A stretch of 64,000 bases of DNA, taken from NCBI GenBank assembly GCA_965223795.1, contig CBDCXL010000002.1, positions 577,036 to 641,035 on the forward strand, in the 5' to 3' direction. The stretch comes from Nitrospinales bacterium (GTDB lineage: Bacteria > Nitrospinota > Nitrospinia > Nitrospinales > VA-1). Of this stretch, positions 19,775 to 37,075 are shown in pieces. The position numbers and the translations under genes are program-made. Each line of letters begins with the position of its first letter. The first letter of the stretch is position 1. The notes beneath the pieces are model-generated. The model saw nothing but the letters and a program-made list of their open reading frames with translations, did no database searches and was not told the origin of the DNA.

Positions 19775-20299
19775 TTACGCGGTTTTTTCTTTCTGGATGA
19801 AATCCCAGACTTCGCGCGGGTGGTCCCTGAGATCCTCGATGTTGCGCCAGACGGCGCGGATCATGCCGGTCTTGTCGATGACGAAGGTGGTGCGGTCGAT
19901 CACCTTCACCATGGTGCCGAGATCGTCCACCTCTTTGATGACGCCGTAGGCGTCGGTGGTCTTCTTGTATTCGTCGGCGATCAGGGTGAAACCGAGCTGG
20001 TACACTTCGATGAACTGCTGGTGGGAATTGACCCCGTTCCAGCTGCATCCCAGCACTTCCACTTCGCGGGTCTTGAATTTGCGGTTCCATTCGTTGAAAC
20101 CGATCATCAGACGGGTGTCTTCCGGTGAGCTGTCCTGGGCGTAAAACGCCAGCACGACCCATTTTTTATCCTGGAAGTCCTTGAGTTTGACAATCACCTT
20201 TTCTTCAGCGGAGGGGCTGGTCGCTCCCGCCTTGTAACCGTATACGGCGGGGAGCTCGAACGCAGGGGCCCTATCGCCGACTTCCAATTCATTGGCCAT
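19775..20299 (-). CDS. peroxiredoxin-fold (BCP/AhpC-TSA-like) protein lacking the peroxidatic cysteine
   Basis: 174 aa. It aligns to BCP, but the TPGC(T) active-site motif reads SPED(T), with a GAC codon at 20119-20117. The conserved Arg context DRTTFVID is retained. Confidence 0.7.
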   Translation of the reverse strand: MANELEVGDRAPAFELPAVYGYKAGATSPSAEEKVIVKLKDFQDKKWVVLAFYAQDSSPEDTRLMIGFNEWNRKFKTREVEVLGCSWNGVNSHQQFIEVYQLGFTLIADEYKKTTDAYGVIKEVDDLGTMVKVIDRTTFVIDKTGMIRAVWRNIEDLRDHPREVWDFIQKEKTA

Positions 20300-20347
20300 T
20301 TAGAAACCTCGGGGTTTGGGGGAAAATTGCGCGGATGCCGGTAAGGC

Positions 20348-20668
20348 TCAGTCGCCGAAAGCGGCTTTGAGCAGAGGCTCCACTTCCCCTTTGGCTTCCA
20401 TCTCGTCCAGAATGTCGGTGTCGCCGTAAAACTTGCCGTCGATGAACACCTTGGGGAGGGTCGGCCAGTTGGTCATCTTGTTCAAGGCTTCGCGCTTGGG
20501 CATGTTTTCCAGCACGTTGACCACCTCGAAGGGATATCCGTACTTGGCGAAAAACTGGATCGTCTCCACGGTGAAACCGCACTGCGGCGCGTTTTTGGTG
20601 CCCTTGCCGTAAATCAGAATCTTGTTCTGCGCAACTTCTTCCTTGATTTCACTTTCGATGTCGGACAT
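20348..20668 (-). CDS. grxD: monothiol glutaredoxin (Grx4/GrxD family; CGFT variant of CGFS)
   Basis: 106 aa (KILIYGKGTKNAPQCGFTVETIQFF ... WPTLPKVFIDGKFYGDTDIL). Confidence 0.88.
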   Translation of the reverse strand: MSDIESEIKEEVAQNKILIYGKGTKNAPQCGFTVETIQFFAKYGYPFEVVNVLENMPKREALNKMTNWPTLPKVFIDGKFYGDTDILDEMEAKGEVEPLLKAAFGD

Positions 20669-20735
20669 GTTCGCTCTCCTGAATATAGTCTTTAAAAAAA
20701 GTTTATCGAATTGGGTGACGCGGGAATCGACCGGT

Positions 20736-20969
20736 TCAGCCCGGCAGGGCCGTCTTGATCTCGGCTGCGTGGATGCGCCCGTCCTGCATGGCTTCGTTGA
20801 GGGACTCCTGGACGGCGCGGTGCCGGGACATCAGATCCATGCTTTCGAATTCCTTGGAAGTCACATGGATGATGAAATGGTCCTTCATGCCCGTTTTGTC
20901 CATGACCTGGACTTCGGCATCGGGTATCTTGGTTTTGACCAAACCGATTAAATTCTCAATGCTGATCAT
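20736..20969 (-). CDS. bolA: BolA family protein
   Basis: 77 aa. The BolA pattern is DHFIIHVTSKEFESMDLMSRHRAVQESL ... IHAAEIKT. Confidence 0.85.
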   Translation of the reverse strand: MISIENLIGLVKTKIPDAEVQVMDKTGMKDHFIIHVTSKEFESMDLMSRHRAVQESLNEAMQDGRIHAAEIKTALPG

Positions 20970-21205
20970 GTCGCCTCGTTTCTCCTTTTTGAGAGTATGC
21001 GCTTCATTTTATTAGGTATTGGATTCAAAATGCATTAAAAAGATTTTTAACTTTTCCCGCTCTTTCCACAGCCTGAGGAAGCCTGCGCGCCGCGCCAGCG
21101 GAATTACAATAAGATATTGATTTTTATAGACTTAAAATGACATCCGGCGGCCGGACAGCGGGACTCCAGGCGGGCTGCGGGTTGGCGCTTCACTCGGTTT
21201 TTGAG

Positions 21206-21266
21206 TATAATATATGAATCCGCGGCCGGTTGAAACCATCTTAACTCAAGCGGCGGTTGAAACCAT
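21206..21266 (+). promoter_or_regulatory. candidate erpA promoter (-10 TATAAT) followed by two 13-bp direct repeats
   Basis: TATAAT lies at 21206-21211. CGGTTGAAACCAT occurs at 21227-21239 and again at 21254-21266, just upstream of the AGGAGG Shine-Dalgarno and the ATG at 21284. Confidence 0.35.
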
Positions 21267-21283
21267 TTCAGCAGGAGGCGTCA

Positions 21284-21625
21284 ATGAGCGTTGCATCGGA
21301 TTTTGTCAAAATCACCCCGAAAGCCTGTGAGGAAGTGAAACGTCTCATCAAGGCGGAAGGCAAACCCGAAATCGGTCTGCGTCTGGGTGTCAAGGGCGGC
21401 GGCTGCTCGGGGTTGTCCTACGACCTTCAGTTCACCCCGCAGGAAAAAGGCGACACAATTCTTGAGGGAGACGGGTTTCAGGTCTTCATGGACGCCAAGA
21501 GCATGATCTACCTGAAAGGCATGCAGCTGGATTTTCAGGACGGGCTTCAGGGCAAGGGTTTCGTGTTCGTCAACCCCAACGCTTCGTCCACCTGCGGCTG
21601 CGGCGAGTCGTTTTCCATCGCCTGA
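21284..21625 (+). CDS. erpA: A-type Fe-S cluster carrier/insertion protein (ErpA/IscA, HesB family)
   Basis: 113 aa. It has GGGCSG and the C-terminal CGCGESF motif. An AGGAGG Shine-Dalgarno sits 7 nt upstream. Confidence 0.88.
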   Translation: MSVASDFVKITPKACEEVKRLIKAEGKPEIGLRLGVKGGGCSGLSYDLQFTPQEKGDTILEGDGFQVFMDAKSMIYLKGMQLDFQDGLQGKGFVFVNPNASSTCGCGESFSIA

Positions 21626-21669
21626 TTTTCCGGCCGGACGCGTTTCATTCCGGCGGCGCACTTCCACCC

Positions 21670-21706
21670 GGCGGGAACGGGCAGTCTTCGCGTTTCCGCC
21701 TTTTTT
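21670..21706 (+). terminator. rho-independent terminator downstream of erpA
   Basis: The stem GGCGGGAACG / CGTTTCCGCC pairs at 9/10 positions and is followed by T6. Confidence 0.7.
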
Positions 21707-21723
21707 ACGAATCCACCTTGTGA

Positions 21724-21751
21724 GCGCATTGCGGCCCGAATGCGCTTTTTT
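21724..21751 (+). terminator. second hairpin plus T-run immediately upstream of ygfZ
   Basis: A GCGCATT / AATGCGC stem is followed by T6 and ends 12 nt before the ATG at 21763. Confidence 0.4.
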
Positions 21752-21762
21752 CATTTCTTGCC

Positions 21763-23469
21763 ATGAACCCGCAATTTGAGGAGGAGCACCGGCGTATCCG
21801 TGAGAACTGGGGCTACTTCCCCCTGGACGACTGGTGCTGCGTGCGCGCCTCGGGTGCGGACGTGTTCGATTTCCTGCAAACCCAGACCACCAACGACGTC
21901 ATGCAGCTGCCGGTCGGCGAAGGGCAGAACAGCGCCATCACCGACCGCAAGGCGAAGCTGATCGCCGCGTTTTCGCTGCACCGGCAAGGGGAAGACGCGG
22001 TGGTGTTCTTCCTGGAAGCGGTGCTCAAGGACGCTCTGACCGCGCATCTCAACTCCTTTCTGTTTCGCGAGCAGGTGGTGATCGAGCCTGTGGAGCTGAC
22101 TCTTGTAGCGGTGCAGGGCCCCAAGAGCGCCCTGGTGCTGGAATCTCTGGGCAGCGCGGCGCTGCCGGAAAAACCCAACAGCATCGCGGCCTTCCGATTT
22201 GAAGAAGACGCGGGTATCGTGATCAACAAATCGCTGACCGGGGAGGAAGGGTTCGTGGTGGGTGTTTCGCCCGAACGGGCAAACTCCTTCATTTCAGCGC
22301 TATCGGCCGCGGACACCGGCGCATCCGCCATTTCCAGGGAAACGCTGGAGGTGCTTCGCATCGAGGCGGGGATTCCGCTGTTCGGAAAAGACATGGACAA
22401 CTCCCACGTACTGCCGGAAACGGGTCTGGAGCACAGCTCGGTGAGCTACAACAAGGGCTGCTACATCGGCCAGGAGGTGATCGCCCGCATCAAGACCTAC
22501 GGGGCGCCCAATTTCGCGCTGATGGGGCTTGTGCTCGAGGACGGCCCCCTGCCCGCTCCCGATACGGTTGTGAAGCTCAAGGATAAAAAGATCGGCACGG
22601 TCAAAAGCTCGACATTTTCCCCCTCTTTGGGAAAGAACATCGCCCTGGCCTACGTGCAAAAGGATCACCGCAGCCCGGACGTGACGCTTTCGGTCACGCT
22701 GGGCGAGACGGAAACCCAGGTGACGACCCACCTGTTGCCGTTTTACCAGCCGCGCACGCGCACGGACCATTCGAAGCGGCTTTTGGAAAAGGCGCTCGCC
22801 ATCTACAAAGAGGAAGAGGATCTCGACCGGCCCATTGCCCTGCTTCGGGAAGCCATCGCCATCGACCCCAAGCACGCACAGGCCTACGAGGCGCTGGGCG
22901 TGTTTCTCTCCAAACAGAACAAGCTGGATGAGGCCATCGCGTTGATGAAGCGGCTGGTCGAGATCGACCCCAAGGAAATCATGGCGCACTCCAACCTTTC
23001 GATCTACTACATGAAGCAGGGACGCATCGAGGATGCGGAGATGGAAAAGGGGGAAGCCACGGCCATCGAGTTTGAACGCCTGGTCGAGCAGAACATGGCG
23101 AAAAAGAAAAAGCAGCAGCAGGACGCGGAAGCGCAAAAGGAGCGGGAGCGAAAAATCGAGATGTTCAAGAAGGTGCTGGAAATCGATCCCATCGATCAGG
23201 TGGCCAATTTCGGGCTGGGCTCCATCTACCTGGAAACCGGGCGCCCGCAGGAGGCGCTGGCGCCGCTTGAGACCGTGATCCGCGAGAACAAGGATTATTC
23301 CGCCGCCTATCTGCTTCTGGGCAAGAACCTGGAAAAGCTGGACAGGCTGGATGAGGCCATCGAGGTGTACCGCCAGGGCATCGCCGCCGCATCCAAAAAA
23401 GGCGACCTCATGCCGCTCAAGGACATGCAGAACCGGCTCAACCGGCTGCTGCACCCGCAGGAACCCTGA
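21763..23469 (+). CDS. ygfZ: YgfZ/CAF17 (IBA57-like) folate-binding Fe-S maturation protein fused to a C-terminal TPR domain
   Basis: 568 aa. The N-terminal ~335 aa form a GcvT-like fold carrying the family signature KGCYIGQE. The C-terminal ~230 aa are TPR repeats (for example AIDPKHAQAYEALGVFLSKQNKLDEAIALMKRLVEIDP). Confidence 0.8.
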   Translation: MNPQFEEEHRRIRENWGYFPLDDWCCVRASGADVFDFLQTQTTNDVMQLPVGEGQNSAITDRKAKLIAAFSLHRQGEDAVVFFLEAVLKDALTAHLNSFLFREQVVIEPVELTLVAVQGPKSALVLESLGSAALPEKPNSIAAFRFEEDAGIVINKSLTGEEGFVVGVSPERANSFISALSAADTGASAISRETLEVLRIEAGIPLFGKDMDNSHVLPETGLEHSSVSYNKGCYIGQEVIARIKTYGAPNFALMGLVLEDGPLPAPDTVVKLKDKKIGTVKSSTFSPSLGKNIALAYVQKDHRSPDVTLSVTLGETETQVTTHLLPFYQPRTRTDHSKRLLEKALAIYKEEEDLDRPIALLREAIAIDPKHAQAYEALGVFLSKQNKLDEAIALMKRLVEIDPKEIMAHSNLSIYYMKQGRIEDAEMEKGEATAIEFERLVEQNMAKKKKQQQDAEAQKERERKIEMFKKVLEIDPIDQVANFGLGSIYLETGRPQEALAPLETVIRENKDYSAAYLLLGKNLEKLDRLDEAIEVYRQGIAAASKKGDLMPLKDMQNRLNRLLHPQEP

Positions 23470-23497: not shown

Positions 23498-25198
23498 TCA
23501 GGATCGGCACTGCTCTCCGGGATTGTTCAGATAGGCCCAAAGGTCGGTCCCCGGCATCAGCACGCCTTTTTTGATCAGCCCCTGATTGACGGTCTCGCCG
23601 TGGTCCATGAGGAACCAGAACTTGAGCAGGATTTTCTCCTCGGGCGTGGTGTGGGGGTCTTCCCAGTTCGGCACGGAGCGGTGACTGGCGTGCGCATCCA
23701 ACAGTTCCTGAGGGATCGTGAGCCGTTTCTTTTTGATGAAGGCGTGATAGCCCTCGATGAGGATGGGTTTGAAGTCTTTGCGGCTGATTTTGATCAGCTC
23801 GGACACGCTGGGAACGCCTTCGGCGTGGAACTCGAAAAATTTGAGCTTGTAGTACTGGTGGATGGTCTCCAGCCGGAAATAGCAGTGCAGGTCCACCACA
23901 TCCGGACCGTACAGGCGGATCAGGTAGTCGCGGATCAGGGATTTGCCGACCTTGAGCAGCAGTTTGTTGAGGCGGCCGCGCTCGAAGAGATGGATACGCA
24001 CGGTGCTCAGGTGCTTCAGGCACTGGGCCTCGATGTCTTTGCGGATTTTTTCGGACTGGGCCGGGATGCGGTACCAGTAGATCTCTTCCCGCGCCACGTT
24101 GAGAGCGGAATTGAACGCTTCGTAAATCTGCTGATTGTTGGACCGCTTGGCCTGACGCGCGATCTTATAGGAGCTTTCTTTTGTGAAACCCAGCTCAATC
24201 AATTGATCCTGAAACTCCTTGCGGCTGCCCATGAGAAAGCCGCCGCGTTCTTTGATGTGGTCTTTGGCTTTTTGCACTCCCCGCAGCGCCAGGCTCACGT
24301 CGCGGGGAATCAGCTTCAAATCGTAACTTCGGGCGAATTTGTGGATCTCTTCCAGAGTCTTGAAATTGAGCTTGTCGATGTATAAGAACTTTTGAATGCT
24401 TTGCTCGGTGAAACCGCATTCCTCAAAAATCCGGATCTTCTTGTACTTGACTTCCTCCCAGTACTTGCGCGTGCCCTCTTTCTTCCTGAACTGGGCCTGG
24501 ATTTCGGACTTGGCCTTGAAAAAATAGCTGCGCAGCAGATACCATTTGATTTTCAAGGTGGACTCGATGATCCACCGGTATTTGGGGGTGAGGATGTTGA
24601 GCTTGGGATCTTCGAGAAGCTCCATCTCCTCGGTCTCCAGGATGTACTCCAGAAGCTCCAGATGCCTTTCGAGCAGGATGGGATTGATCTGCTCGATGAA
24701 TTTCCGGTAGATGGTTTTCCAGCGGAAAGGTTCAAACTGGGTAGCCGGTTCGCCGCCTTCGGCTGCATCCTGAATCCGGCTTTTGATTTTCTGCACGCCC
24801 ACTTGCTCGATCTTTTCGAACAATTCGTCGCGGGCGACGATATCACGGATTTTCAGCTGTTTCAGACGGCTGATGACGTCGGGGATGCGTTCGTTTAAGG
24901 CCTCATCGATTTCCCTGTAGGTCTGGATGGGAAGGAAATACAGCTCTTCGAGCAAGCCATTGACGTTTTCCAGGGAAACGTCCGTCTTTTTCGCGAGCTG
25001 GCGGTAGAGATCGAAATCGAGGATCTTGTCGCCGGTCTGGCAGGCGCGGATGTCCTTCAGGAAGCTTCTGGCTTTTTTCAGCTCCTCTCTTTGGGCATAG
25101 GGATCGTTGATGATCCTCAAAAAGAGATATTCCGCCCTTTGCAGATCCCTTTGAGCAAGGAGTTCCAGTCCCTGCGTCATGGGGTCGAATACGAACAT
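23498..25198 (-). CDS. hypothetical 566-aa Lys/Glu-rich helical protein
   Basis: A GGGAGGAAG Shine-Dalgarno precedes the ATG at 25198; the track start at 25318 adds 40 aa. I recognise no motifs. A terminator separates it from nxrC. Confidence 0.6.
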   Translation of the reverse strand: MFVFDPMTQGLELLAQRDLQRAEYLFLRIINDPYAQREELKKARSFLKDIRACQTGDKILDFDLYRQLAKKTDVSLENVNGLLEELYFLPIQTYREIDEALNERIPDVISRLKQLKIRDIVARDELFEKIEQVGVQKIKSRIQDAAEGGEPATQFEPFRWKTIYRKFIEQINPILLERHLELLEYILETEEMELLEDPKLNILTPKYRWIIESTLKIKWYLLRSYFFKAKSEIQAQFRKKEGTRKYWEEVKYKKIRIFEECGFTEQSIQKFLYIDKLNFKTLEEIHKFARSYDLKLIPRDVSLALRGVQKAKDHIKERGGFLMGSRKEFQDQLIELGFTKESSYKIARQAKRSNNQQIYEAFNSALNVAREEIYWYRIPAQSEKIRKDIEAQCLKHLSTVRIHLFERGRLNKLLLKVGKSLIRDYLIRLYGPDVVDLHCYFRLETIHQYYKLKFFEFHAEGVPSVSELIKISRKDFKPILIEGYHAFIKKKRLTIPQELLDAHASHRSVPNWEDPHTTPEEKILLKFWFLMDHGETVNQGLIKKGVLMPGTDLWAYLNNPGEQCRS

Positions 25199-25519: not shown

Positions 25520-26521
25520 TCAGTACTGCAGCTCATGCCACTGGGTGACGCCTTTCTGACCGTTTCTTTCTTTGTTCTGACCGTTCCAGATCGCGAATGC
25601 GATCGGGGTTTTGCCACTCGAAAACTGAGTGTCGTTCTGGTCATCGGTTTTGAGAGCGCGTTTGTAGACTACGCCCCAGCGGTCATTGCTCCAGTTGCCT
25701 TCACCGTCCACATCCTGATTCGCCTGAGTGGTCAGCGTGCTGAACCCTTCGGCATTCAGGTCTTCAACAGGCGATACGCGCATGGATGCTTCGGAGAGGA
25801 TGTTACCGGTAGCACGACCGGGATTGAACACGCCCTCGTCTTTACCCATGCCGAAATCGACGTAGGTGCTGCGCTTGGAGATGTCGCTGGCTCCGCCGGA
25901 CTCGATGCCGGCCGCGTTCCGCTTGGACTTGCTGCCGGAAGCGTGCTGGGTGTCGAGACCTTTGAGTGCACCATCAGGCTCATACATGTAGTAACTGCCG
26001 GAACCCATGGCCATGTACTTGTACTGATCTTCCATGTCCAGCATTCCCTTGTTACCGGTTTTCCCTGCGCCTTCTTTATTCCAGGTCGCTTTCCACTGCC
26101 AGATGTTGACCCGCTCGCCGTCACCACCCATGGTGAACGGAGGCTCTTCACCGGTCTGGTTCACAGGAAACATGATCGCACCCTGGTCCCTGTACTGCTG
26201 GGACTGCACCATGATGTCGTTTCTTGTGGGATCGGTCCAGGAAACCCGGATTGCGATTTCCTTGCCATTGGTGGCGGCTTTCACATTGACCCACTTGGTC
26301 GCGGGATTCGGCCACATGGGATTGGTGATCATCTGCGGATCCAGATCGATGACCACGTGTTTGCCCTTGGTGGGACCGTAATTGGACCAGAAAGGATCGG
26401 TCGGATCAATGGGGATTTCGCCCTGAACTTTCAATGCCTTGATCGTGGCCGCGCCAGCGCTGGACGCAAACAGACCGAGCATCAAAGCTGAAATTAAAAT
26501 GAGTAGATACGTCTTCTTCAC
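25520..26521 (-). CDS. nxrC: NxrC-like gamma subunit (type II DMSO-reductase-family heme-b subunit, EbdC/DdhC-like) with Sec signal peptide
   Basis: 333 aa. The signal peptide is MKKTYLLILISALMLGLFASSAGA. The EB_dh-like region is PFWSNYGP ... AIRVSWTDPTRNDIM ... DQGAIMFPVNQ. It is the last gene of the operon. Confidence 0.7.
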   Translation of the reverse strand: MKKTYLLILISALMLGLFASSAGAATIKALKVQGEIPIDPTDPFWSNYGPTKGKHVVIDLDPQMITNPMWPNPATKWVNVKAATNGKEIAIRVSWTDPTRNDIMVQSQQYRDQGAIMFPVNQTGEEPPFTMGGDGERVNIWQWKATWNKEGAGKTGNKGMLDMEDQYKYMAMGSGSYYMYEPDGALKGLDTQHASGSKSKRNAAGIESGGASDISKRSTYVDFGMGKDEGVFNPGRATGNILSEASMRVSPVEDLNAEGFSTLTTQANQDVDGEGNWSNDRWGVVYKRALKTDDQNDTQFSSGKTPIAFAIWNGQNKERNGQKGVTQWHELQY

Positions 26522-26576
26522 AGTATTCTCTCCTCGTTAGCAAACAGATTAATCAAGTCAATCGAGGAAAAGCCCG

Positions 26577-27395
26577 CTAACGGGGTTCGCATTCCGCAGG
26601 AGCATTTGCAATCAGATCGTTTTCCATACTGTAGGACAAAGAACGGAATTCCGGTTCTTCCACCTTGATCGGCTGGATGTCCAGAAGCGTGTTTTCGTTC
26701 CTGAGAAAAATCGACAGGATATCGACGATGTCCTTGTACAGTCCGCGTTCCGCCTTGCGGGACGTGAAGATGCAAAACAAAGGAGCCCAGCGTCCAACAT
26801 GGTTGCGCATGAATTTCTTCATGCTGCTGAGCAGGACTCCGATCTTTCGCTCGTCATGACCGTTCTGGATTCCATATGCAGTCCTGAAGCACATGTAATA
26901 CATGAAGGCCAGTTCAATCGAAATATGGTCCAGGCGTTCCTTCGAACGTTTCCTCGGCAATTCGAAACCGAAGGTTTCAAAAAAGCCGCCCAGCTGGATC
27001 AATACGTCCGTCTGGGACTGGATCCCGCCTTCCGTACCATACTGCATTTCGTATGGAGGACACTCCATAGAAACCGCATGCCCGAAAACGTGGATGTACT
27101 CTTTCTGCACCTGCTGGACGGTCATTTTCGGCAGGTATTTGCTGAATCCGCTCACAATGGATTCAACCTGCTTCCAATCGTCCTCGTCCACAAGGGCGAT
27201 ATCCATGGGTTCGAGTAAAGATTTGGGACGGAAAAACTTGCGATTCCAGGGATAACTCAAGGCACGTGAAAGAATATCGTATATCCGTCCTCGCGCGAGG
27301 TTTAGGGATATTCTCTGTTCTTTCAGTTCTTCAAGAGTGCCGGTTTCCCCAAGTTTCGCCAACATGGGATCCGATGCTTGAGTCACGTTCGCCAT
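26577..27395 (-). CDS. TorD/NarJ-family redox-enzyme maturation chaperone
   Basis: 272 aa. The family pattern is QKEYIHVFG ... CPPYEMQYG ... GGFFETFGFEL ... RLDHISIELAFMYYM. It lies between nxrB and nxrC. Confidence 0.75.
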   Translation of the reverse strand: MANVTQASDPMLAKLGETGTLEELKEQRISLNLARGRIYDILSRALSYPWNRKFFRPKSLLEPMDIALVDEDDWKQVESIVSGFSKYLPKMTVQQVQKEYIHVFGHAVSMECPPYEMQYGTEGGIQSQTDVLIQLGGFFETFGFELPRKRSKERLDHISIELAFMYYMCFRTAYGIQNGHDERKIGVLLSSMKKFMRNHVGRWAPLFCIFTSRKAERGLYKDIVDILSIFLRNENTLLDIQPIKVEEPEFRSLSYSMENDLIANAPAECEPR

Positions 27396-27531
27396 ATTCG
27401 ATAATCTCCAAAATCCCCGAAGGTTACCCGCAATCCGGAGCAGGGAGTGGAATCTCCCTGCCCCGGCGTTGCAGGATGAGCTCTTGCTTCAAGCGAGTCC
27501 CGGTTAAGGGCTTTCGCCTTCACTTCACTCC

Positions 27532-28809
27532 TTAGATGGCGCCGACATGCTCCTCGGGCCGGACGTAGAAAGGCTCTTCAACCGTCACGCGGATGACTTC
27601 CTTTCCTTTCCGGTTGAACCCGATGATCGTGTCGTTGTACATCTCAAACTTCTTGCCGTGAATGTTGGTCTCGAAGATCTTCGGACCCGGCTCACGTTTC
27701 CATTTGAAGATGATGCGCTGTGTCGTCCTAAAGAGCTGAAGGACGCCCAGCAGATCCCGGTCCGGAACCATGTACTGATCGATCGCATGGTCGACGCCCG
27801 GTCCGAACATCTGCTGTGAATAGGCCCTGGGAACGTGCCGCGACGGTACGTAGTAACCGTTCGGCTCGGTGCCCAGCTGCGGATACAGCGGCAGTGCGAC
27901 TTTGCGGTCCCGGATCATGTAATACTGCGGATTCTCGGGATCGTGCGCCCATTCGCCGTTGCTGCCTATCTTCACCAGACCCTGAAGGCGAATCTTGCCG
28001 ACACAGGCGGCCATGCAGCGGGTCTCCATCTGATCGCCTTCCGTCAACGGATCCAGTCCTTCGATCCTCGGGTAACAGGCGATGCATTTCTCGGAGATCC
28101 GCGTCGTGCCGCGGAACATCGGCTTTTTGTAAGGACACTGCTCAACGCACTTTTTGTAACCACGGCAGCGCGACTGGTCGATCAGAACGATGCCGTCCTC
28201 CTGGCGCTTGTAGATCGCCTTACGGGGACACGCCGCCAGACAGCCCGGATACGTGCAGTGGTTGCAGATGCGCTGGACATAGAAAAACCAGATTTTGTGC
28301 TCGGGCAGCACCGAACGCGTTCCGTTGTCGCCGCCGAAGGTGCCTTCGCGGGACTGCGTGAACTCGCGGCCGTGAGCGGTGTCTTCGCCGAAGTTCGGGA
28401 AGCGCCACTCTTCGTCCGTCGGTACGTAACCGATCGCTTGCTGGTTCAAACCGATCTTGGCAGGCGCTTCGAAAATCGTCACGCCTTCGTACACGCCGTG
28501 GATCGCCTTGTTGGAAGTCTTGCGGACGTTCCACACGTTCTGACCCGGATTGGACTGCTCAAGCATCTTCAAGATCTTCCAATCCCAGAACTGCGGGTAA
28601 CCGCCGTAAGGCTTCGTTTCAACGTTGTTCCACCACATATACTCCTGGCCCTTGGAGAAGGTCCAGGTGGATTTATGGGCCATCGTACACGTCTGACAAG
28701 CAATGCAGCGGTTCGTGTTGAACACGAACGTAAACTGCTCTTTCGGATGCTTCTCTTCGTATACGTAAGTAGACATCCGGCCCAGTTGCCAGTTATAGAC
28801 TTCAGGCAT
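27532..28809 (-). CDS. nxrB: nitrite oxidoreductase beta subunit (Fe-S subunit of a type II DMSO reductase family enzyme)
   Basis: 425 aa. The Cys clusters are CIACQTC, CNHCTYPGCLAACP, CRGYKKCVEQCP, CIACYPR and CMAAC. A perfect TAAGGAGG Shine-Dalgarno is present. Confidence 0.8.
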   Translation of the reverse strand: MPEVYNWQLGRMSTYVYEEKHPKEQFTFVFNTNRCIACQTCTMAHKSTWTFSKGQEYMWWNNVETKPYGGYPQFWDWKILKMLEQSNPGQNVWNVRKTSNKAIHGVYEGVTIFEAPAKIGLNQQAIGYVPTDEEWRFPNFGEDTAHGREFTQSREGTFGGDNGTRSVLPEHKIWFFYVQRICNHCTYPGCLAACPRKAIYKRQEDGIVLIDQSRCRGYKKCVEQCPYKKPMFRGTTRISEKCIACYPRIEGLDPLTEGDQMETRCMAACVGKIRLQGLVKIGSNGEWAHDPENPQYYMIRDRKVALPLYPQLGTEPNGYYVPSRHVPRAYSQQMFGPGVDHAIDQYMVPDRDLLGVLQLFRTTQRIIFKWKREPGPKIFETNIHGKKFEMYNDTIIGFNRKGKEVIRVTVEEPFYVRPEEHVGAI

Positions 28810-28861
28810 TATCGTACCTCCTTAGCTTACTGTGTGTTCAGTTCCGTTAAATACCGGATGC

Positions 28862-28889
28862 GGCGGGCTCCCCACAAGGGAAGCCCGCC
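28862..28889 (-). other. strong intercistronic hairpin between nxrA and nxrB
   Basis: On the minus strand, GGCGGGCTTCCC-TTGT-GGGGAGCCCGCC pairs at 11/12 positions. No T-run follows. Confidence 0.5.
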
Positions 28890-28899
28890 AACACCAGAT

Positions 28900-31800
28900 T
28901 TAAATCTTCACGCGGACGTACTGACCTGCAAGGTACATTTCCGCGAATCGGTCTTTCAACGGTGACTCCGGGGTGTAACCCGTTCGCACGGGCTCCCACA
29001 GTCCTTTACCATGGAGACCACCATCCTCGGCCTTGGAGAATTTAACCAGCGTCTCTTTCGGAACTGCGTTGATCGCATGGTTATCCGCTTCGTAACCGTG
29101 GAGGAACTTCATCTTGGTTTTTGCCTTATGGAACAGACTGTCCGTCTGATGCATGGGCATCAACCAGGACCGCGTGATGGACTGCTGACCGCCGTACCGG
29201 AAGTTGGACTGATACGGAGTGGTCATCGACATGGCGCGGCCGTCGGGGCGTTCTTCATGGGCCTTGACGGTACGCTCGGTGCCGGTCCACGTGGCGTGTT
29301 TCATCATGGTGGTATGGTACGGATATGCCGGGTTGTACTTCGCCCGCAGCATGAGCCGTGCCACTTTGTACCTCGGATCCGACGGTTTCCAACCCATGTA
29401 CGGCCGGTCAGCGGGATTCGCGTCGCAGTATACATAGTCACCGTCGTTGATACCCAGGTCTTTACACAGGAACGGGTTCATGTGCACCTGCCACTCACCA
29501 ACACCCGGAGAACGCTTATCCATGCGGTAAGGATCGCCGAAGTTGTTGTTCCAGATCATATTCCAGTCCGTGGTGGCCCAGGAAGAATGCGCGGTATGTC
29601 TGGATTTCGGAGTGACGCAGTAGAACCGGTACCCCTTCTCCCACAAGAAGTTCTTGGTCGTACGCACTGCGGACCAGGGCTTCTTGATGTTACGGACGTG
29701 GCGCAGATCCGGATCCTGCTCGTCTTCCGGAATGCCGTAGTCGTCCGGCCGGATGTAGGGGTTGGTGGACACGATCACGTTCGGCAGATAAGGCGTCGCT
29801 TCAGGTCCTTCACGATGGACGATGAAGTTTTCGCCCCACTCGATCGCTTCCGGTTCGTCATTGTAGAACTGGATGCGGCCGTTCGGAGTGTAGAAAGGCT
29901 TCGACTCCGTGAACATCTCCCAGAACGGAGACCGCGGATAGGTCCGGTACAGCATCAAACAACATCCCGGCTCACCGTACTTGCCGTTGATGATGTCGTC
30001 GATGTTGTAGCCCATACCCGTGGTGGAGGTAGTGAATACCCGGCGAATCATGGCTTTCGTCCGGTTGGGCGCTTCGCCTTCATATACTTTCATATGATCG
30101 GCAAACCGCTTGTCACCGGTGACTTCCGCCAGACGCTTGGAGAATTCACGATGCATCAGGTTGTCGTCGATGGTGTCGAAGATCGGCTTGATGCCGGTGC
30201 CGCCCCAGATCTGATGGAACGGGTTCGAACACGCGGACGTGATCTCGTAAGACTCGAATTCCGCCCAGGAGTTCGGCGCCAAAACGATGTCCGAGTACTC
30301 GCAGGATCCGGTGAACTCGATGTCCTGAGCCACGATCATGTCGACGTTGTTGTTGGTGTTGAACACCAGCTCGTAGAACCACTTCGCGTTGTTGATGACG
30401 TTGACGTTAACGAACCAAACAAGCTTAGTGGGCGTCGGCATATGGGTGCGGCCGGTGAACACTTTCCGTCCATACCGCGGGGTATTGACGACCAGCGCTT
30501 TATCGCGGTGCGCCCAGTATCCGACTTCCTCACCCTTCAGGTAACCCTTGACGTTCTTCCAGTCGATGTTCTTGGCCGGATCGAGAACGGTGTTGAAGGG
30601 ATCTTCCGCGACCATCGCGGCGAAACCAGGTCCTGACCAGTGGGAACCCTGGTAGTTGCCGGCTTTGTAGTTGCCCGCCCAGGTGTGGGAACCGGAGCCT
30701 TTCGGGCCTACGTTACCGGTCAGCATCAGGGGCACATAAGAAGCCCGGTTGTGCATCGTGGCGTGGAAGTAATGGTTGATGCCTTCCCCGTAGTGGATCT
30801 CAACCGGCTTGATGGTGCCGATGTCGCGGGCAACACGAAGCACGAGATCACGCGGGGCGTGACTGATCTGATTGACGGTATCCAGATCGTAGTCTTTCAG
30901 ATGTACTTTGTACATCTCGTACAGAGGCATGACGGTGATCGTCTTGCCGCTCACGAGCTTGATGTCATAAACACCGTCCAGTGCAGGATCGATGTTTTTC
31001 TTCTTCATCTTCGCGCCGATGTCTTCGCGGTTGATCGCAACCGGTTTGTCCGAGTTGGTATCCCACACGACGAAATCGGGCATCTTGTCACGGTTGAAGT
31101 TGGCCATCCACTTCGTGGTCGCTCCATCCTTCGGCAGGGCCTGAGCCTTGTAGCCGGGGATGAAATCGTCCGGATGCAGACGGATCAGGTTGTCCGTTCG
31201 CACCAGAAGCGGCATGTCGGTGTACTCCTTAACGTAGTCCACATCGACCAGACCTTCTTCCATGATGATCTTCGCACAGCCCAGAAAGATGGAGATGTCC
31301 GAAAGACCCGCACGCACCGGAACCCAGTAGTCCGCCTTGGTTGCCGGCGGGTTGTACTCCGGAGCGATCGCAACGAGCGTGCCGCCGCGTTCCATGATCT
31401 CCGTGTACCAGTGGGCTTCCGGCATCTTGTTCTCGATCAGGTTCTTACCCCACTGAATCGTCATCTTCGCATACCGGTGGTCGGCGAAGTCGATGTCGGA
31501 GGTCTGCATTCCGTGCGTCCAGGAATGCCCCGGCGCCTGGTCGCCGTGCCAGGTGTAGTTCGACCATGCGCGGCCGCCCAATACCTGTCCCGGTCCCCGG
31601 CCCCGAATGATCGAGTCCAGAAGGGCCACCTGGTTGCCCAGGCGGTAAATGCCGTACTTGCCGATAACGCCGAGAAGTCCCATGCCGCCGCGGTACTTGA
31701 AAGTACGCGGGCCGGAACCGCCCATCGCTTCGATCATTTCAGGCTGATAACCTTCGTTCTTCAGGCGCTGGGCACCGCGGGCGCCGCTGTATGCTTTTGC

Positions 31801-32361
31801 AACGGCCACGTGGCCTTTCGCCAGATAGGTGAAGGTCTGATCCCAGGTCAAACGGACGAACTCGTCCGTGCCCCGGCTGGTGAACTTATATTTTTCGCGG
31901 TTTTCTTTATCCAGAAACGGAAAACCGTCGTCCGCCCACTGTTTCCAGCCGACGCGGATCATCGGATACTTGTTCCGATAAGGTCCGTACGCCCGGCGGG
32001 GATAGGTCATGCCACGCAGACACATGCGCGGGTTCCACGCTGCGTCGGCCTGGTTGCCGTAAAGGTCGCGGACTTTGTGATGATCGTAGTTCTGCTCGAT
32101 ACGCATCAGGATGCCGTTACGAACGAATCCGCGTACGCGGCACTGATGGGTGTCGTTGGGCGAACAGCAGTAGGTGAAAGACCGCTCATACTTGTACTGA
32201 TCGCGGTACACTTCCTCCCAACGCCGGTCGGGATAGGATTCCAACGGGTTTCCTACCTTCACTACGGGCTTTAACTGAGCTCCTACCTTCTTGCTGGAAA
32301 GGGCCATAGCTGTCGCTACACCAGCACTCACCTGCAAGAATTTCCTTCTGTTTAACCTCAT
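28900..32361 (-). CDS. nxrA: nitrite oxidoreductase alpha subunit, periplasmic type (Mo-bisPGD, Tat-exported)
   Basis: 1153 aa. The twin-arginine signal is MRLNRRKFLQVSAGVATAMALS and the FS0 Cys segment is FTYCCSPNDTHQCRVRGF. The size and the 425-aa beta partner fit the Nitrospira/Nitrospina/anammox NXR better than Nar, Ser, Pcr or Ebd enzymes. A GGGAGGG Shine-Dalgarno is present. Confidence 0.78.
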   Translation of the reverse strand: MRLNRRKFLQVSAGVATAMALSSKKVGAQLKPVVKVGNPLESYPDRRWEEVYRDQYKYERSFTYCCSPNDTHQCRVRGFVRNGILMRIEQNYDHHKVRDLYGNQADAAWNPRMCLRGMTYPRRAYGPYRNKYPMIRVGWKQWADDGFPFLDKENREKYKFTSRGTDEFVRLTWDQTFTYLAKGHVAVAKAYSGARGAQRLKNEGYQPEMIEAMGGSGPRTFKYRGGMGLLGVIGKYGIYRLGNQVALLDSIIRGRGPGQVLGGRAWSNYTWHGDQAPGHSWTHGMQTSDIDFADHRYAKMTIQWGKNLIENKMPEAHWYTEIMERGGTLVAIAPEYNPPATKADYWVPVRAGLSDISIFLGCAKIIMEEGLVDVDYVKEYTDMPLLVRTDNLIRLHPDDFIPGYKAQALPKDGATTKWMANFNRDKMPDFVVWDTNSDKPVAINREDIGAKMKKKNIDPALDGVYDIKLVSGKTITVMPLYEMYKVHLKDYDLDTVNQISHAPRDLVLRVARDIGTIKPVEIHYGEGINHYFHATMHNRASYVPLMLTGNVGPKGSGSHTWAGNYKAGNYQGSHWSGPGFAAMVAEDPFNTVLDPAKNIDWKNVKGYLKGEEVGYWAHRDKALVVNTPRYGRKVFTGRTHMPTPTKLVWFVNVNVINNAKWFYELVFNTNNNVDMIVAQDIEFTGSCEYSDIVLAPNSWAEFESYEITSACSNPFHQIWGGTGIKPIFDTIDDNLMHREFSKRLAEVTGDKRFADHMKVYEGEAPNRTKAMIRRVFTTSTTGMGYNIDDIINGKYGEPGCCLMLYRTYPRSPFWEMFTESKPFYTPNGRIQFYNDEPEAIEWGENFIVHREGPEATPYLPNVIVSTNPYIRPDDYGIPEDEQDPDLRHVRNIKKPWSAVRTTKNFLWEKGYRFYCVTPKSRHTAHSSWATTDWNMIWNNNFGDPYRMDKRSPGVGEWQVHMNPFLCKDLGINDGDYVYCDANPADRPYMGWKPSDPRYKVARLMLRAKYNPAYPYHTTMMKHATWTGTERTVKAHEERPDGRAMSMTTPYQSNFRYGGQQSITRSWLMPMHQTDSLFHKAKTKMKFLHGYEADNHAINAVPKETLVKFSKAEDGGLHGKGLWEPVRTGYTPESPLKDRFAEMYLAGQYVRVKI

Positions 32362-32534: not shown

Positions 32535-33755
32535 TCAACCGACTCCGGCCCTCAACTCATACACTTCGATGCAACGGTCACAGGCCCCGTCCTTGCTTTC
32601 CCAGTCGGGAAAATCAATCTGGATGGCCTCGATGACCATTTCATCGCAGATACTCTCGGGATCGTCCACCCAGTTGTAAGTGGGAAACTTGCACAACGGG
32701 CACGGGGATCCCTGCAAATGGATATAGTCTCTCTCCTCTTCCGCCAACTCCGCTTCATCAACATACTTGGCCATCAGCGTGTCCAGATCGGTGGCCATCG
32801 ACAACAATTCCTCATGGGTGAACACTTCGGTGCGCCACAAGCCTTCGAAGATACCCTTACGCTGACCATCCGGAATTTTGCGGTAAAAGTTGTCGAATTC
32901 GCGGTAGCGGGATTCTTTGGACATAACGGACACAACGCCCATTCTGGCCAATCGCGCATCCACATAAACGTTCCACAACAGGCGGAAGCGTGCGGTGATC
33001 ATGTTCTTGACCGACGGATTACCGGGAATGAAGGAATCCTCGTAGTCAAACTCAGGATCGACCATATCCTTCGCATGCATGAACTCGTGGATGAGAAACG
33101 CATCCAGCTCCTGGACTTCCTCAGGATTGCTGAAACGGCTCGCCAGAACCCGCATCTCGATGATGGGCTTGTTGGAGGTTCGCGCCAGAACATTCGAACC
33201 TTCATCAACCTTGTTGATCGCCCGTTTGACCGTGACCTCCTGAATTCGTTCTTCAAAGTCACGCGCCAGATCGTAGGCGATCTCGCCTTCATCGATGTCG
33301 TCTTGGGGCTGATCTGAAACTTCGGAAGCGTCTTCTTGGGTGGGGACAGGCTGATCCTGCTCGGTGGGAGTGCTTTCTAGGGTTTCGCCTTGGGATGCTT
33401 CCGGGGAAGAAGCGTCTTCTTCTAGGGTTTCGCCGGACGTTTCTTCCGCTGATGGATCCTGCAACTGGTGGGATTGAGGAGCCTTATTGCGGCCAACGGA
33501 GCGCTGACTCTTTGGAATCAGGCCAACCGCCTCTAAGGCTCGCAGCACATGTTCCCCGAGTTTCAGCTTCTCTATGAAGAACAGGCGGTTTACTTTCTCA
33601 AACGCCTCTTCGCGGTCGTCCTCGGGGAGTTCGTATATGGGGTCCGCAAGGGAATGGTATTCATCATAATCGGCACGGAACCCGGAACGCTCATGGTGGT
33701 TCAGGTGCCTGAATACGGCTTCTTCCATCAATTGCGGGCTGTAGGTAACTTTCAT
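32535..33755 (-). CDS. hypothetical protein with an HExxH motif, an acidic low-complexity linker and a C-terminal CxxC...CxxC zinc-ribbon
   Basis: 406 aa. It contains FLIHEFMHAKD, a roughly 90-aa Glu/Asp/Ser/Pro-rich linker with GETLE repeats, and a C-terminus CPLCKF ... CDRCIEVY. It lies immediately upstream of nxrA on the same strand. Confidence 0.6.
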   Translation of the reverse strand: MKVTYSPQLMEEAVFRHLNHHERSGFRADYDEYHSLADPIYELPEDDREEAFEKVNRLFFIEKLKLGEHVLRALEAVGLIPKSQRSVGRNKAPQSHQLQDPSAEETSGETLEEDASSPEASQGETLESTPTEQDQPVPTQEDASEVSDQPQDDIDEGEIAYDLARDFEERIQEVTVKRAINKVDEGSNVLARTSNKPIIEMRVLASRFSNPEEVQELDAFLIHEFMHAKDMVDPEFDYEDSFIPGNPSVKNMITARFRLLWNVYVDARLARMGVVSVMSKESRYREFDNFYRKIPDGQRKGIFEGLWRTEVFTHEELLSMATDLDTLMAKYVDEAELAEEERDYIHLQGSPCPLCKFPTYNWVDDPESICDEMVIEAIQIDFPDWESKDGACDRCIEVYELRAGVG

Positions 33756-34200: not shown

Positions 34201-36831
34201 CTATTTTTTATCGACAGCATCTTTCAGCTTGTCGATTTCCTGGATCATCTTCATGAAATGCTCGGGGTCGCCCAGCTCTTTGGCCACCGCACGGGCATTT
34301 TCGAGGTATTTCTCCCCCGGGTCCTTCCTGCTGAGCAGGATTTCCATGCGAGCCACGGTTAAAAGCAACTGGATCTGATGCGAAAGGGCCCTGGCTTCGG
34401 CAAACGTTTCCGCAGCCTGGTCGAAGTAGGACTCCCCCTCCTCAAATTGGATCTCCTTGAAATGGAGGTTCCCCAGATAGGTCAGATCCTGAGCGCATCC
34501 GATTTTATCTCCTATTTCCCGCGTCAGAGCCAATGCCTTGAGATACAGTTGTTTGGCCTTGACCCGGTCGCCGTTGCTGAAACTCAGGTTGGCGAGGTTG
34601 CGGTAATCCTCAGCCATTCCCTGCTTGTCTTTATTCCTTTCGACAATATCGAAAGATTCCTGATATCTGGTTTCGGCTTTTTCTTTATATCCACGTTCCA
34701 GAAAATACTGGCCGAGGCTTCTGAGATCGATGCTGATTTCCTTGTCGTCTTTGAGCGCCCTTGCGAACTCCAGGGCTTTCTCAAGATAGGACTGCTGATT
34801 CGGCCGGTCTTTCTTCTCTGAATAGATGTTTGCCAGATTGCGGCAATCGTAGCAGGCGGCACGCAGGTTTTTGCTTTCCTCGGCAATTTCAAGAGCCTTC
34901 AGGGCGTACTGCTCCGCCCGGCCCCAGTCCTCCTTCTGCACGTACAGCGCATACAGGTTCCTGTGGTCTTCGCTCATCTCCACCCGGTTGCCTGCCTGCT
35001 CGTCGAGCTTGAGCGCCTCCAGGTAATTGCGTTCCGCGCCGGCAAAATCGGTCTTGTTGAGACACATGTCCCCCAGACTGCGGTGATCTTCGACCTGACC
35101 GCGGCTGTCGCCCTGCCCTTCATGGAAGGCGATGGATTTTTTCATCCACTTTTCGGCGGCATCAAATTTATTGAGCTGGACGAACATCTTCGCCCGGCTG
35201 CGGTAGAGTTCGCCCAGCCCCTGCCTGTCGCCGAGCTTTTCCTTGATGGCGATCGCCTGGCCGTAGGACTCACCGGCTTTTTGATATTCCTTTTTCTCCT
35301 GCAGGACTCCGGCAAGGCTCTCCAGAACGGCGGCCTTCACGCCTTCGTCCTTGGACATTTCCGGCAGGGCGAGGGCTTTTTCAAACGCAGCGACGGCTTC
35401 ATCGAGCTGCCCCGCCATGAAATGCACGTTGGCCAGCTCGGTCATGAGGCTCATCTTTGCGGCGGGGTCCTTTTCGACGTCCGGGCTTTCCAGCAGGGAG
35501 GCGATGTCTTCCTGCCTCTGGGACAGGTATTTGGGCTGCGCCATGATGTAGACGAGCTTGTCCTGCACCTGCTGGGTGCTGCGGCTGTCTTTCATGGCGT
35601 CGTACAGGGAGTTGGCGCGGATGAAATAGGACTCGGCGTCCCTGTATTCCTCTTTTTTCATCAGGATGTCGCCGATGGCCTCGCACTGCTGCGCCATGCC
35701 GGGACGGTTTTCCAGCTTCTCCATGATCTCGAGCGACTGCCGATACAACTCCAGCGCGGGCTCCCACTCTTCCTTAAGGGTGCGCACCTGCCCGAGGTTG
35801 GCAAAACTGCGCGCCTCGCCCAACGCATCGCCCAGGGCGCTCATGATTTTGCGGGAATCTTCGTAGTACTCCAGCGCCTGATCGAGGTTTTTCTTGTGCA
35901 GGCATATGTTGCCGAGGCTGCCCAGAAGGTAGGACTGACGGCGCTGGTCCTTGCCTTCCTGAACGATCTTCAAGGCCTTGCGGAAATTTTCCTCGGCGCT
36001 GTCGAGGTATTCCGGGCCGCCTTTCTGCGCCAGTTGCAGGCAGGCTCCGCCCAGATTGCCGTAACAGATGCCGGCGGACTGGGTGTCCCCCAGTTCTTCA
36101 TAAAGGGCGATGGATTTTTCTATGGTCTCGGCGACCTTGTCCATTCGGGCGGATTTGAAATAGATCTCCTCAAGCTCCTGATAGCGGGCCAGCAATTCTT
36201 TTTTGTCGCCGGATTGCGCCAGAGAGTTGATGGTCTTGAGCAGCGCGGTCTCCTGCTGCGCGAGATAGCGGGTGTTCTTCTGGATGGATTCGACTTTATC
36301 GTTGAGCGCGTCGATCCGCTCCTTGTCTTTTTCCGGGTCCAGGCTCGCATGCGCCTTCTGGAAGTAATCCTTCGCGGTGTCGAATTCCTCTTTCTGCATG
36401 TGAACGTTGCCGAGGTACTCATAATAGACCGCCTGGCCGCCGGTGTCGTTCGCCTTGACCATGAGCTGCAAGGCTTTGTGGTAATTTTCCTCGGCCTTGT
36501 CCAGGCTGCCTTTGTACAGATACACCGAACCCAGGTTGCCGAGGGAGCTTTCGATGCCTTTCAGATCCTCCACTTTTTCCATCAGCGCCAAAGACTGGGA
36601 ATAGTAGTCCTCCGCCTTGTCCAGCTTGCGGCTCTGAAAACAGATATTCCCCAGGTTGCCGAGCACATAGGCCTGGCCGGTTTCGTCGCCCGACTGATGC
36701 ATGAACTTGAGGGCCTTGAGAAAATGGGATTCCGCTTCTTTCAAATCGTTTTTTTCCAGCGAGGCGTAACCGAGTTTTTCGTATTTTCTTCCGTCTTCCA
36801 TCGGGCAATCACTTAAAAGAGAGGTTGTCAT
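34201..36831 (-). CDS. large tetratricopeptide-repeat (TPR) protein
   Basis: About 876 aa of nearly continuous TPR units, following a recurring A/G..Y..LG..Y pattern. The start is uncertain: ATG at 36831 or 36801, while the track start at 36993 adds implausible residues. Confidence 0.75.
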   Translation of the reverse strand: MTTSLLSDCPMEDGRKYEKLGYASLEKNDLKEAESHFLKALKFMHQSGDETGQAYVLGNLGNICFQSRKLDKAEDYYSQSLALMEKVEDLKGIESSLGNLGSVYLYKGSLDKAEENYHKALQLMVKANDTGGQAVYYEYLGNVHMQKEEFDTAKDYFQKAHASLDPEKDKERIDALNDKVESIQKNTRYLAQQETALLKTINSLAQSGDKKELLARYQELEEIYFKSARMDKVAETIEKSIALYEELGDTQSAGICYGNLGGACLQLAQKGGPEYLDSAEENFRKALKIVQEGKDQRRQSYLLGSLGNICLHKKNLDQALEYYEDSRKIMSALGDALGEARSFANLGQVRTLKEEWEPALELYRQSLEIMEKLENRPGMAQQCEAIGDILMKKEEYRDAESYFIRANSLYDAMKDSRSTQQVQDKLVYIMAQPKYLSQRQEDIASLLESPDVEKDPAAKMSLMTELANVHFMAGQLDEAVAAFEKALALPEMSKDEGVKAAVLESLAGVLQEKKEYQKAGESYGQAIAIKEKLGDRQGLGELYRSRAKMFVQLNKFDAAEKWMKKSIAFHEGQGDSRGQVEDHRSLGDMCLNKTDFAGAERNYLEALKLDEQAGNRVEMSEDHRNLYALYVQKEDWGRAEQYALKALEIAEESKNLRAACYDCRNLANIYSEKKDRPNQQSYLEKALEFARALKDDKEISIDLRSLGQYFLERGYKEKAETRYQESFDIVERNKDKQGMAEDYRNLANLSFSNGDRVKAKQLYLKALALTREIGDKIGCAQDLTYLGNLHFKEIQFEEGESYFDQAAETFAEARALSHQIQLLLTVARMEILLSRKDPGEKYLENARAVAKELGDPEHFMKMIQEIDKLKDAVDKK

Positions 36832-37075
36832 CGGAAGGGACACAGACACGCTGGGACCCCGAAGATGAAGAAAGACCCGGCGAACAAAACGCTGCGGCGG
36901 CCTGATCTTGTTGTAGAAAGTGAATGATATCGAATTATATTGCCCGGAAAGAGAGGTGTCAACATGAGGCCCAAGGGATGGACCGGCACCCATTATAGCG
37001 CATCCGAATTTTAATGTGTTTGTTTTTTATGGAATATCAATCAGTTTTTGAATATCCGCAATCGGCAGGCAGGCA

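Follow-up and report, generated by a model that had tools for sequence, protein, structure and literature searches.

Five adjacent genes in a 64,000-nt stretch of a Nitrospinales genome (NCBI assembly GCA_965223795.1, contig CBDCXL010000002.1, positions 577,036 to 641,035; the whole stretch is called the window below) encode a monothiol glutaredoxin, a BolA-like protein, an A-type carrier resembling ErpA, a YgfZ protein fused to tetratricopeptide repeats (TPR) and a protein with a peroxiredoxin fold. On balance, we consider it probable that this locus is a late-acting iron-sulphur (Fe-S) cluster trafficking set of the Nitrospinota, organised in two divergent units and most likely general-purpose. 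The neighbouring nitrite oxidoreductase (NXR) is probably one client among many Fe-S enzymes and not the object of a dedicated device. A previous sequence-only reading had assigned the five genes to these families, and both positions and assignments were confirmed by the open reading frame (ORF) list, by hidden Markov models (HMMs) from Pfam and NCBIfam and by the motifs CGFT, CGCGESF and KGCYIGQE. The locus contains the following features.

19775-20299, minus strand: PrxL, a peroxiredoxin-fold, BCP/PrxQ-like protein of 174 aa (ORF list; Pfam AhpC-TSA), last gene of the bolA-grx-prxL unit
20348-20668, minus strand: Grx, a predicted class II monothiol glutaredoxin (CGFT) of 106 aa (Pfam Glutaredoxin; TIGR00365)
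20736-20969, minus strand: BolA-like protein of 77 aa, of the short IbaG/YrbA-like size class (Pfam BolA), first gene of the minus-strand unit
20970-21283, no strand: divergent intergenic region of 314 bp (promoter scan; 53-species alignment)
21284-21625, plus strand: ErpA-like A-type Fe-S carrier of 113 aa (TIGR00049; GGGCSG ... CGCGESF)
21722-21747, plus strand: terminator-like hairpin with T-run, between erpA and ygfZ-TPR
21763-23469, plus strand: YgfZ-TPR, whole gene, 568 aa (GCV_T, GCV_T_C, TIGR03317, TPR families)
21763-22758, plus strand: YgfZ/COG0354 (IBA57-family) domain, aa 1-332 of YgfZ-TPR (KGCYIGQE at aa 231-238)
22759-23469, plus strand: C-terminal TPR domain, aa 333-568 of YgfZ-TPR (many TPR Pfam families; AlphaFold2 model)

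Conservation was assessed from a scan of 185,579 species genomes that returned 469 relatives of YgfZ-TPR. The best 80 of these 469, corresponding to 77 loci, were analysed, and the loci were compared by tblastn with 14 proteins of the window. All of the best 80 were Nitrospinota-type fusions, a few of the records being filed under other taxon names. The order prxL-grx-bolA, followed divergently by erpA-ygfZ-TPR, was kept in every sufficiently long locus with the exception of two (L043 and L049 in our numbering), and the signature residues of Grx, the BolA-like protein, the ErpA-like carrier and YgfZ were invariant across 62-75 species loci. The conservation in related genomes on which the sequence-only reading depended was therefore borne out by the 77 Nitrospinota loci. 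For four partners of one pathway, contiguity in a genome of about 3000 genes would be far beyond chance.

Grx matched Pfam Glutaredoxin with 60 bits. Its best NCBIfam match, ahead of any other family by far, was the Grx4-family monothiol model TIGR00365, with 101.7 bits under a cut-off of 117.1. The active site CGFT, a Ser-to-Thr variant of CGFS with a single Cys, was invariant in 63 of 63 loci, the nearest solved structures were GrxS14, E. coli Grx4 and GLRX5, and identity to E. coli GrxD reached 40%. These features point to a class II monothiol glutaredoxin whose exact equivalence is not certified by TIGR00365. The BolA-like protein scored 48.1 bits against Pfam BolA (PF01722, cut-off 25.7) and carries both cluster-ligand histidines, His31 (in DHF, or DH[FY] across loci) and His67 (in IHA), which were invariant in the loci. 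Short BolA-like proteins (RP812, XC975, AtBolA2 and YrbA) were its nearest solved structures. Compared with E. coli proteins, it scored 32 bits with IbaG and 25.8 bits with BolA, at 28-31% identity, and its 19.5 bits against the BolA-proper equivalog NF008638 (cut-off 137) do not make it an orthologue of E. coli BolA.

The A-type carrier most probably starts at ATG 21284, which is preceded by an AGGAGG ribosome-binding site; the longest ORF begins at TTG 21257. It exceeded the cut-off of TIGR00049 by a wide margin (118.4 bits versus 58.8). Among the equivalogs, ErpA NF010147 scored highest, with 111.0 bits for a cut-off of 117, compared with 100.3 for the IscA model (cut-off 150.6) and 92.3 for the SufA model (cut-off 136.2), and identity to E. 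coli ErpA was 44%. The protein has the HesB/IscA fold, and its three ligand cysteines (GGGCSG, CGCGESF) were invariant in 70-72 loci.

The second gene of the plus strand encodes GCV_T and GCV_T_C domains and scored 73.3 bits with TIGR03317, the CAF17-like YgfZ model (cut-off 49). Its signature KGCYIGQE occurs as KGCY[IT]GQE in 75 of 75 loci and aligns residue for residue with KGCYTGQE of E. coli YgfZ and NKGCYVGQE of the Leptospirillum structure 3ttg. In the AlphaFold2 (AF2) model (pLDDT 82.5), the body matches the GcvT/YgfZ/IBA57 fold and the loop bearing the signature (residues 213-249) is disordered. Pfam TPR families cover aa ~333-565, where the model shows helices at 333-418, 422-474 and 479-563, that is, a 53-residue helix with three TPRs on either side. 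This region matched generic TPR proteins only. All 120 homologues listed in a search with YgfZ-TPR were 556-620 aa long and had both domains, every named one coming from Nitrospinota, and the TPR domain was present in all full-length loci. The sequence-only reading had recognised the YgfZ family and the repeats, both of which stand, and had missed that the TPR half is the better conserved of the two in the homologue alignment. A literature search found no paper describing the fusion.

The same four families make up the late-acting ISC machinery of mitochondria (GRX5, BOLA1/3, ISCA1-ISCA2 and IBA57), and the family correspondence drawn in the sequence-only reading holds down to the ligand residues: the Grx Cys, the BolA His, the three carrier Cys and the Cys of KGCYxGQE. 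In mitochondria, Grx5 gives [2Fe-2S] to Isa1-Isa2, and IBA57 is required for the fusion to [4Fe-4S] (PMC9551070). Differences are also clear, in that the Nitrospinota locus holds one A-type carrier gene instead of an ISCA1/ISCA2 pair and has no NFU1 or ferredoxin gene nearby. Moreover, neither E. coli YgfZ (326 aa) nor the solved IBA57 chains (309-372 aa) have a TPR domain.

E. coli provides the mechanistic model. There, BolA co-purifies with GrxD, and the two share a cluster that can be reconstituted and transferred (PMC8593673); GrxD supplies or replenishes the clusters of ErpA (PMC11327457), and ErpA has been named 'the potential EcYgfZ partner protein' (PMC9551070). By analogy with these systems, the monothiol Grx, by itself or paired with the BolA-like protein in a His-ligated heterodimer, would hold a glutathione-ligated [2Fe-2S] cluster and pass it to the ErpA-like carrier; the carrier and the YgfZ/IBA57-family protein, with its essential Cys, would then form [4Fe-4S] or deliver it to apo-proteins. 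The most plausible role of the TPR domain would be to offer clients or partners a platform for docking. PrxL is a conserved pseudo-peroxiredoxin co-inherited with grx and bolA. We infer every transfer step of this scheme, as well as the role of the TPR domain, from the known systems; the gene identities, the signature residues and the conserved arrangement are direct observations.

Sequence identity to the E. coli proteins is moderate (GrxD 40%, ErpA 44%, YgfZ 28% over 266 aa, BolA/IbaG 28-31%), and the genomic organisation differs. As the sequence-only reading had stated, the E. coli genes are scattered: in K-12 they lie at 176.6 kb (erpA), 454.5 kb (bolA), 1733.8 kb (grxD), 3041.3 kb (ygfZ) and 3336.5 kb (ibaG), dispersed over 3.2 Mb, whereas here they are contiguous, with CGFT in place of CGFS and with YgfZ fused to TPRs. 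Partial associations of this kind are already known. COG0354 (ygfZ) genes often cluster with Fe/S genes, for example in Rubrobacter, Stenotrophomonas and Pelagibacter (PMC3223725), and the bolA-grx association goes back to Huynen et al. (2005), as cited in PMC10051749. The present locus gives the same kind of genome-context signal, with the difference that both associations stand back-to-back in one place and that erpA and ygfZ are immediate same-strand neighbours phylum-wide. Each family and the two context associations were known before, and what is new is that all four late-acting families meet at a single conserved locus, that erpA adjoins ygfZ throughout the phylum, that YgfZ is fused to TPRs and that a peroxiredoxin-like protein carries a Cys-to-Asp exchange.

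This last protein, PrxL, scored 99.7 bits against Pfam AhpC-TSA (PF00578), in agreement with a thioredoxin-like peroxiredoxin fold and with the peroxiredoxin-fold assignment of the sequence-only reading, and fell far under the cut-offs of all NCBIfam peroxiredoxin equivalogs. What that reading had missed is the absence of the peroxidatic Cys. In the alignment with canonical BCPs, YFYPKDxTPGCT is replaced by AFYAQDSSPEDT, so that TPGC becomes SPED and the peroxidatic Cys becomes Asp; the stretch in the present genome reads FYAQDSSPEDT and lacks the Cys of the PxxxTxxC pattern. D56, P59, T62, R136 and a Ser/Thr at position 58 are kept. Asp occupies the peroxidatic position in 63 of 64 full-length family members, the remaining one having Cys, and in every one of the 62 loci that gave a readable hit. 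The sole frequent Cys is at position 85, where ten of the 64 members have I, V or M, and no other Cys that might act as the resolving one is conserved in the family. Also specific to the clade is a 13-aa insert in PrxL, YGYKAGATSPSAE. When 1.84 billion cluster representatives were searched exhaustively with HMMER, one full-length representative of the family was returned, the next relatives having at most 41% identity, and a word-index search reproduced this gap.

Compared with BCP/PrxQ peroxiredoxins, PrxL thus shares the fold and most of the active-site framework residues and differs in the Asp at the peroxidatic position, the lack of a conserved resolving Cys, the insert and the identity of 41% or less. 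PrxL is a tight, Nitrospinota-restricted and strongly conserved pseudo-peroxiredoxin; because the peroxidatic Cys is absent, it cannot work as a thiol peroxidase, and its classification among the peroxiredoxin enzymes is unwarranted. The genome paper of Nitrospina gracilis lists the orthologue NITGRv1_550009 as 'bcp, Peroxiredoxin', beside grxD (NITGRv1_550008), an enzymatic label that is not tenable. The constant position of prxL downstream of grx suggests a link to the Grx-BolA pair. A literature search for natural Cys-to-Asp peroxiredoxins found nothing relevant. The window offers a contrast to PrxL in a canonical typical 2-Cys peroxiredoxin at 6151-6738 on the minus strand, with FVCPTE and a C-terminal VCP.

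Same-strand gaps within the locus are short, the median distance being 64 nt from bolA to grx, 38 nt from grx to prxL and 95 nt from erpA to ygfZ; the last of these ranges from -4 to 326 nt among species. Because of these short gaps, the arrangement fits two operons, and we infer co-transcription of two divergent units, the minus-strand bolA-grx-prxL and the plus-strand erpA-ygfZ-TPR. In the present genome, the hairpin at 21722-21747 may act as an attenuator or partial terminator, and since it precedes the ygfZ-TPR start, read-through from erpA into ygfZ may be partial here. A literature search for Nitrospina expression data found nothing relevant.

Between the two units, the promoter scan detected an erpA promoter-like site at 21182-21211 (TTGGCG-18-TATAAT, scored 10 of 12), which corresponds to a strongly conserved clade consensus, TTGACG-18-AGTATAAT, in the 53-species intergenic alignment. 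On the bolA side, the same alignment revealed two conserved blocks, TATTnGATTCnA and AAAAGnTTTAAnTTTTT, at 21017-21055, and a conserved bolA ribosome-binding site; it gave no sign of a shared operator. The sequence-only reading had proposed that the genes share one divergent control region of ~290 bp. The divergent region exists at 20970-21283, its length being 314 bp, and the shared control is not supported: since each side has its own promoter-like blocks and four species carry insertions between bolA and erpA, the region is shared physically and not demonstrably in regulation. A direct repeat, two copies of GGTTGAAACCAT at ~21228-21262, was considered as a clade-wide regulatory element and rejected, as it was not conserved in the alignment. 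Both copies, each a partial palindrome (GGTTnnAACC), are located downstream of the erpA -10 element and upstream of the start codon.

Several observations weigh against a general trafficking set of these four families. At the protein level, the equivalog models of Grx, ErpA and YgfZ score under their curated cut-offs, so that they do not establish the proteins as exact orthologues of those of E. coli. In addition, phmmer places YgfZ-TPR nearer to B. subtilis GcvT (E=1.9e-23) than to E. coli YgfZ (E=1.5e-15), and Foldseek ranks GcvT above YgfZ and IBA57 for the N-terminal domain, so that by these comparisons it is not closer to YgfZ. On the other side, GcvT equivalogs scored far under their cut-offs (152.6 versus 300), and GcvT proteins have no Cys at the signature position and show FxGK instead. 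We accepted COG0354 membership of the N-terminal domain because of the KGCYxGQE signature together with TIGR03317. At the level of arrangement, the synteny in Nitrospinaceae spans ~17 kb and includes unrelated genes (PlsC, S1/P1 nuclease, MBL hydrolase), in the order DUF2797 ... MBL hydrolase, S1/P1 nuclease, plsC, the cluster, an orphan gene of 566 aa and nxr. Because this whole block is syntenic, the majority of the 77 loci cannot be counted as independent support for selection on the five genes. Furthermore, L043 and L049 (GC ~45%) keep erpA-ygfZ-TPR only, flanked by genes for a fatty-acid desaturase, a histidine kinase, a PRC-barrel protein and sugar metabolism (glycosyltransferase, transketolase), with the bolA half not nearby. 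Finally, insertions of 1.5-3.4 kb split bolA from erpA in four species, the inserted genes encoding a HicB-like antitoxin, a PAS/CHASE histidine kinase or a 958-aa pentapeptide-repeat protein. They lie at these positions of the respective loci.

L064, 4945-5355: insert between bolA and erpA
L066, 8454-8864: insert between bolA and erpA
L076, 1448-3970: insert between bolA and erpA
L035, 4274-7150: insert between bolA and erpA

These genomic observations could also be explained if only the two pairs were functional, bolA-grx (with prxL) and erpA-ygfZ, their back-to-back position being a frozen historical accident with no joint regulation or selection. The long syntenic block, in which nxr is included, the separate conserved promoter-like blocks on each side, the unrelated genes between bolA and erpA in four species and the solitary erpA-ygfZ-TPR of L043 and L049 are all in line with that explanation. 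Two points speak for the whole set. First, all four core families share one biochemical pathway. Second, the full arrangement persists in a divergent lineage (L038, L040, L046 and L050; GC ~38% in L038 and L040, the two that were checked) despite wholly changed surroundings: the five-gene cluster and the orphan gene are kept, no nxr is present within 10 kb, and the flanks hold topoisomerase subunits, SIMPL, a TPR protein, DnaB and L9 instead of plsC and nxr. We therefore regard two unconnected pairs as unlikely, while granting that explanation appreciable weight. L040 also carries an ApbC/Mrp-type Fe-S carrier ATPase (ParA + FeS_assembly_P) at 1229-2323 on the minus strand, ~5.6 kb upstream of the cluster with topoisomerase genes in between.

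The general trafficking set has next to be compared with a role devoted to NXR, whose genes follow downstream of the locus in the present genome.

23498-25198, minus strand: orphan all-alpha protein, 566 aa from ATG, convergent with ygfZ-TPR; possible accessory member of the module
25520-32361, minus strand: nxrC (EB_dh), TorD-like chaperone, nxrB (4Fe-4S dicluster) and nxrA (molybdopterin)

The sequence-only reading had noted NXR genes 2 kb away, and they indeed begin 2.05 kb past the ygfZ-TPR stop, with the single orphan gene between. It had suggested that an organism dependent on this Fe-S-rich enzyme could plausibly need a dedicated [4Fe-4S] delivery module. On such a reading, the module would mature NxrA/NxrB before Tat export, and its TPR domain might dock an NxrD-bound precursor. 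An NxrD, NxrC or NxrB gene adjoins the cluster in most Nitrospinaceae loci, the enzyme holds one [3Fe-4S] and four [4Fe-4S] clusters (PMC3578206), and no YgfZ-TPR fusion or homologue of the orphan neighbour has yet turned up outside Nitrospinota. The proposal nevertheless found no support in the wider comparison. The nxr adjacency in most Nitrospinaceae loci is real, yet it is part of the general synteny of the ~17-kb block; in the divergent lineage, no nxr gene lies within 10 kb of the retained cluster, and in L043 and L049 erpA-ygfZ-TPR sit by glycosyltransferase and transketolase genes. Here, nxr is encoded on the other strand, and its operon closes with a strong terminator of its own (25484-25454, minus strand; 14 pairs, 11 of them G-C, and a T8 run), directly after nxrC and before the orphan gene. 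Many further Fe-S enzymes occur in Nitrospina, among them complex I, the 2-oxoacid:ferredoxin oxidoreductases of the reductive tricarboxylic acid cycle, SQR and hydrogenase, and a second, housekeeping set was not demonstrated; the 64-kb window contains no isc, suf or nif core Fe-S biogenesis genes. Overall, nothing ties the module specifically to NXR, and we find dedication to this enzyme improbable.

The orphan protein gave no match in Pfam, NCBIfam or a PDB sequence search. Its AF2 model is all-alpha (pLDDT 69) and produced no Foldseek hit against the PDB at E<=0.001, and its homologues were found in Nitrospinota only. In the divergent lineage, despite the rearranged surroundings, the gene remains next to ygfZ-TPR. 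The 3' ends of the two genes share exactly 25 nt in about 49 of 65 species, and 28 nt separate them here. One could imagine a specialised late-acting [4Fe-4S] insertion machine in which the TPRs tether YgfZ to specific clients or chaperones, such as NxrD-bound NxrA/B, with PrxL and the orphan protein as dedicated subunits. Such a machine would be a bacterial Fe-S targeting complex without a described counterpart, and we give the idea little credence.

Glutaredoxin-dependent and Grx-fused peroxiredoxins exist, and the annotation of E. coli BolA is that of a transcriptional regulator; accordingly, bolA-grx-prxL might be read as a redox or stress operon apart from Fe-S trafficking, with BolA as transcription factor and Grx reducing a peroxiredoxin, all the more as the N. 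gracilis table puts its 'bcp peroxiredoxin' by grxD, alongside thioredoxin reductase and other peroxiredoxins. We hold this for very improbable: with Asp for the peroxidatic Cys and no other Cys conserved, PrxL leaves Grx nothing to reduce, Grx, with its CGFT site, is of the class II monothiol type, whose members are generally inactive as oxidoreductases and bind Fe-S clusters, and the BolA-like protein keeps both cluster-ligand His positions.

Elsewhere in the window, an Rfam scan of its whole length found no riboswitch or small RNA at the locus, its sole match being the RNase P RNA (bacterial class A, 46156-46533, minus strand, 318.8 bits). A tRNA-Pro(TGG) predicted by ARAGORN at 7138-7220 on the plus strand falls within the 5' end of the longest ORF of a cation-efflux gene (7070-7957). 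Just upstream of nxrA lie four genes.

32535-33755, minus strand: 406-aa protein, no Pfam match
34201-36993, minus strand: 930-aa multi-TPR protein
37144-39117, plus strand: 657-aa protein, no Pfam match
39472-41310, minus strand: B12-binding radical SAM enzyme

A partnership between YgfZ and an A-type carrier, like that of IBA57 with ISCA1/2, is stated in the literature only as a possibility (PMC9551070). The phylum-wide erpA-ygfZ pair, back-to-back with bolA-grx, offers independent genomic support for this partnership and supplies tractable proteins for testing it. The TPR fusion suggests a route by which recognition of clients or partners could be built onto YgfZ. As for PrxL, it has been counted as a peroxiredoxin in inventories of the defence of Nitrospina against reactive oxygen species, even though its residues indicate that it is unable to be a thiol peroxidase. 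Finally, Nitrospinota play a major part in marine nitrite oxidation and need much iron, which makes their Fe-S supply line, of which this locus is probably a part, of ecological interest.

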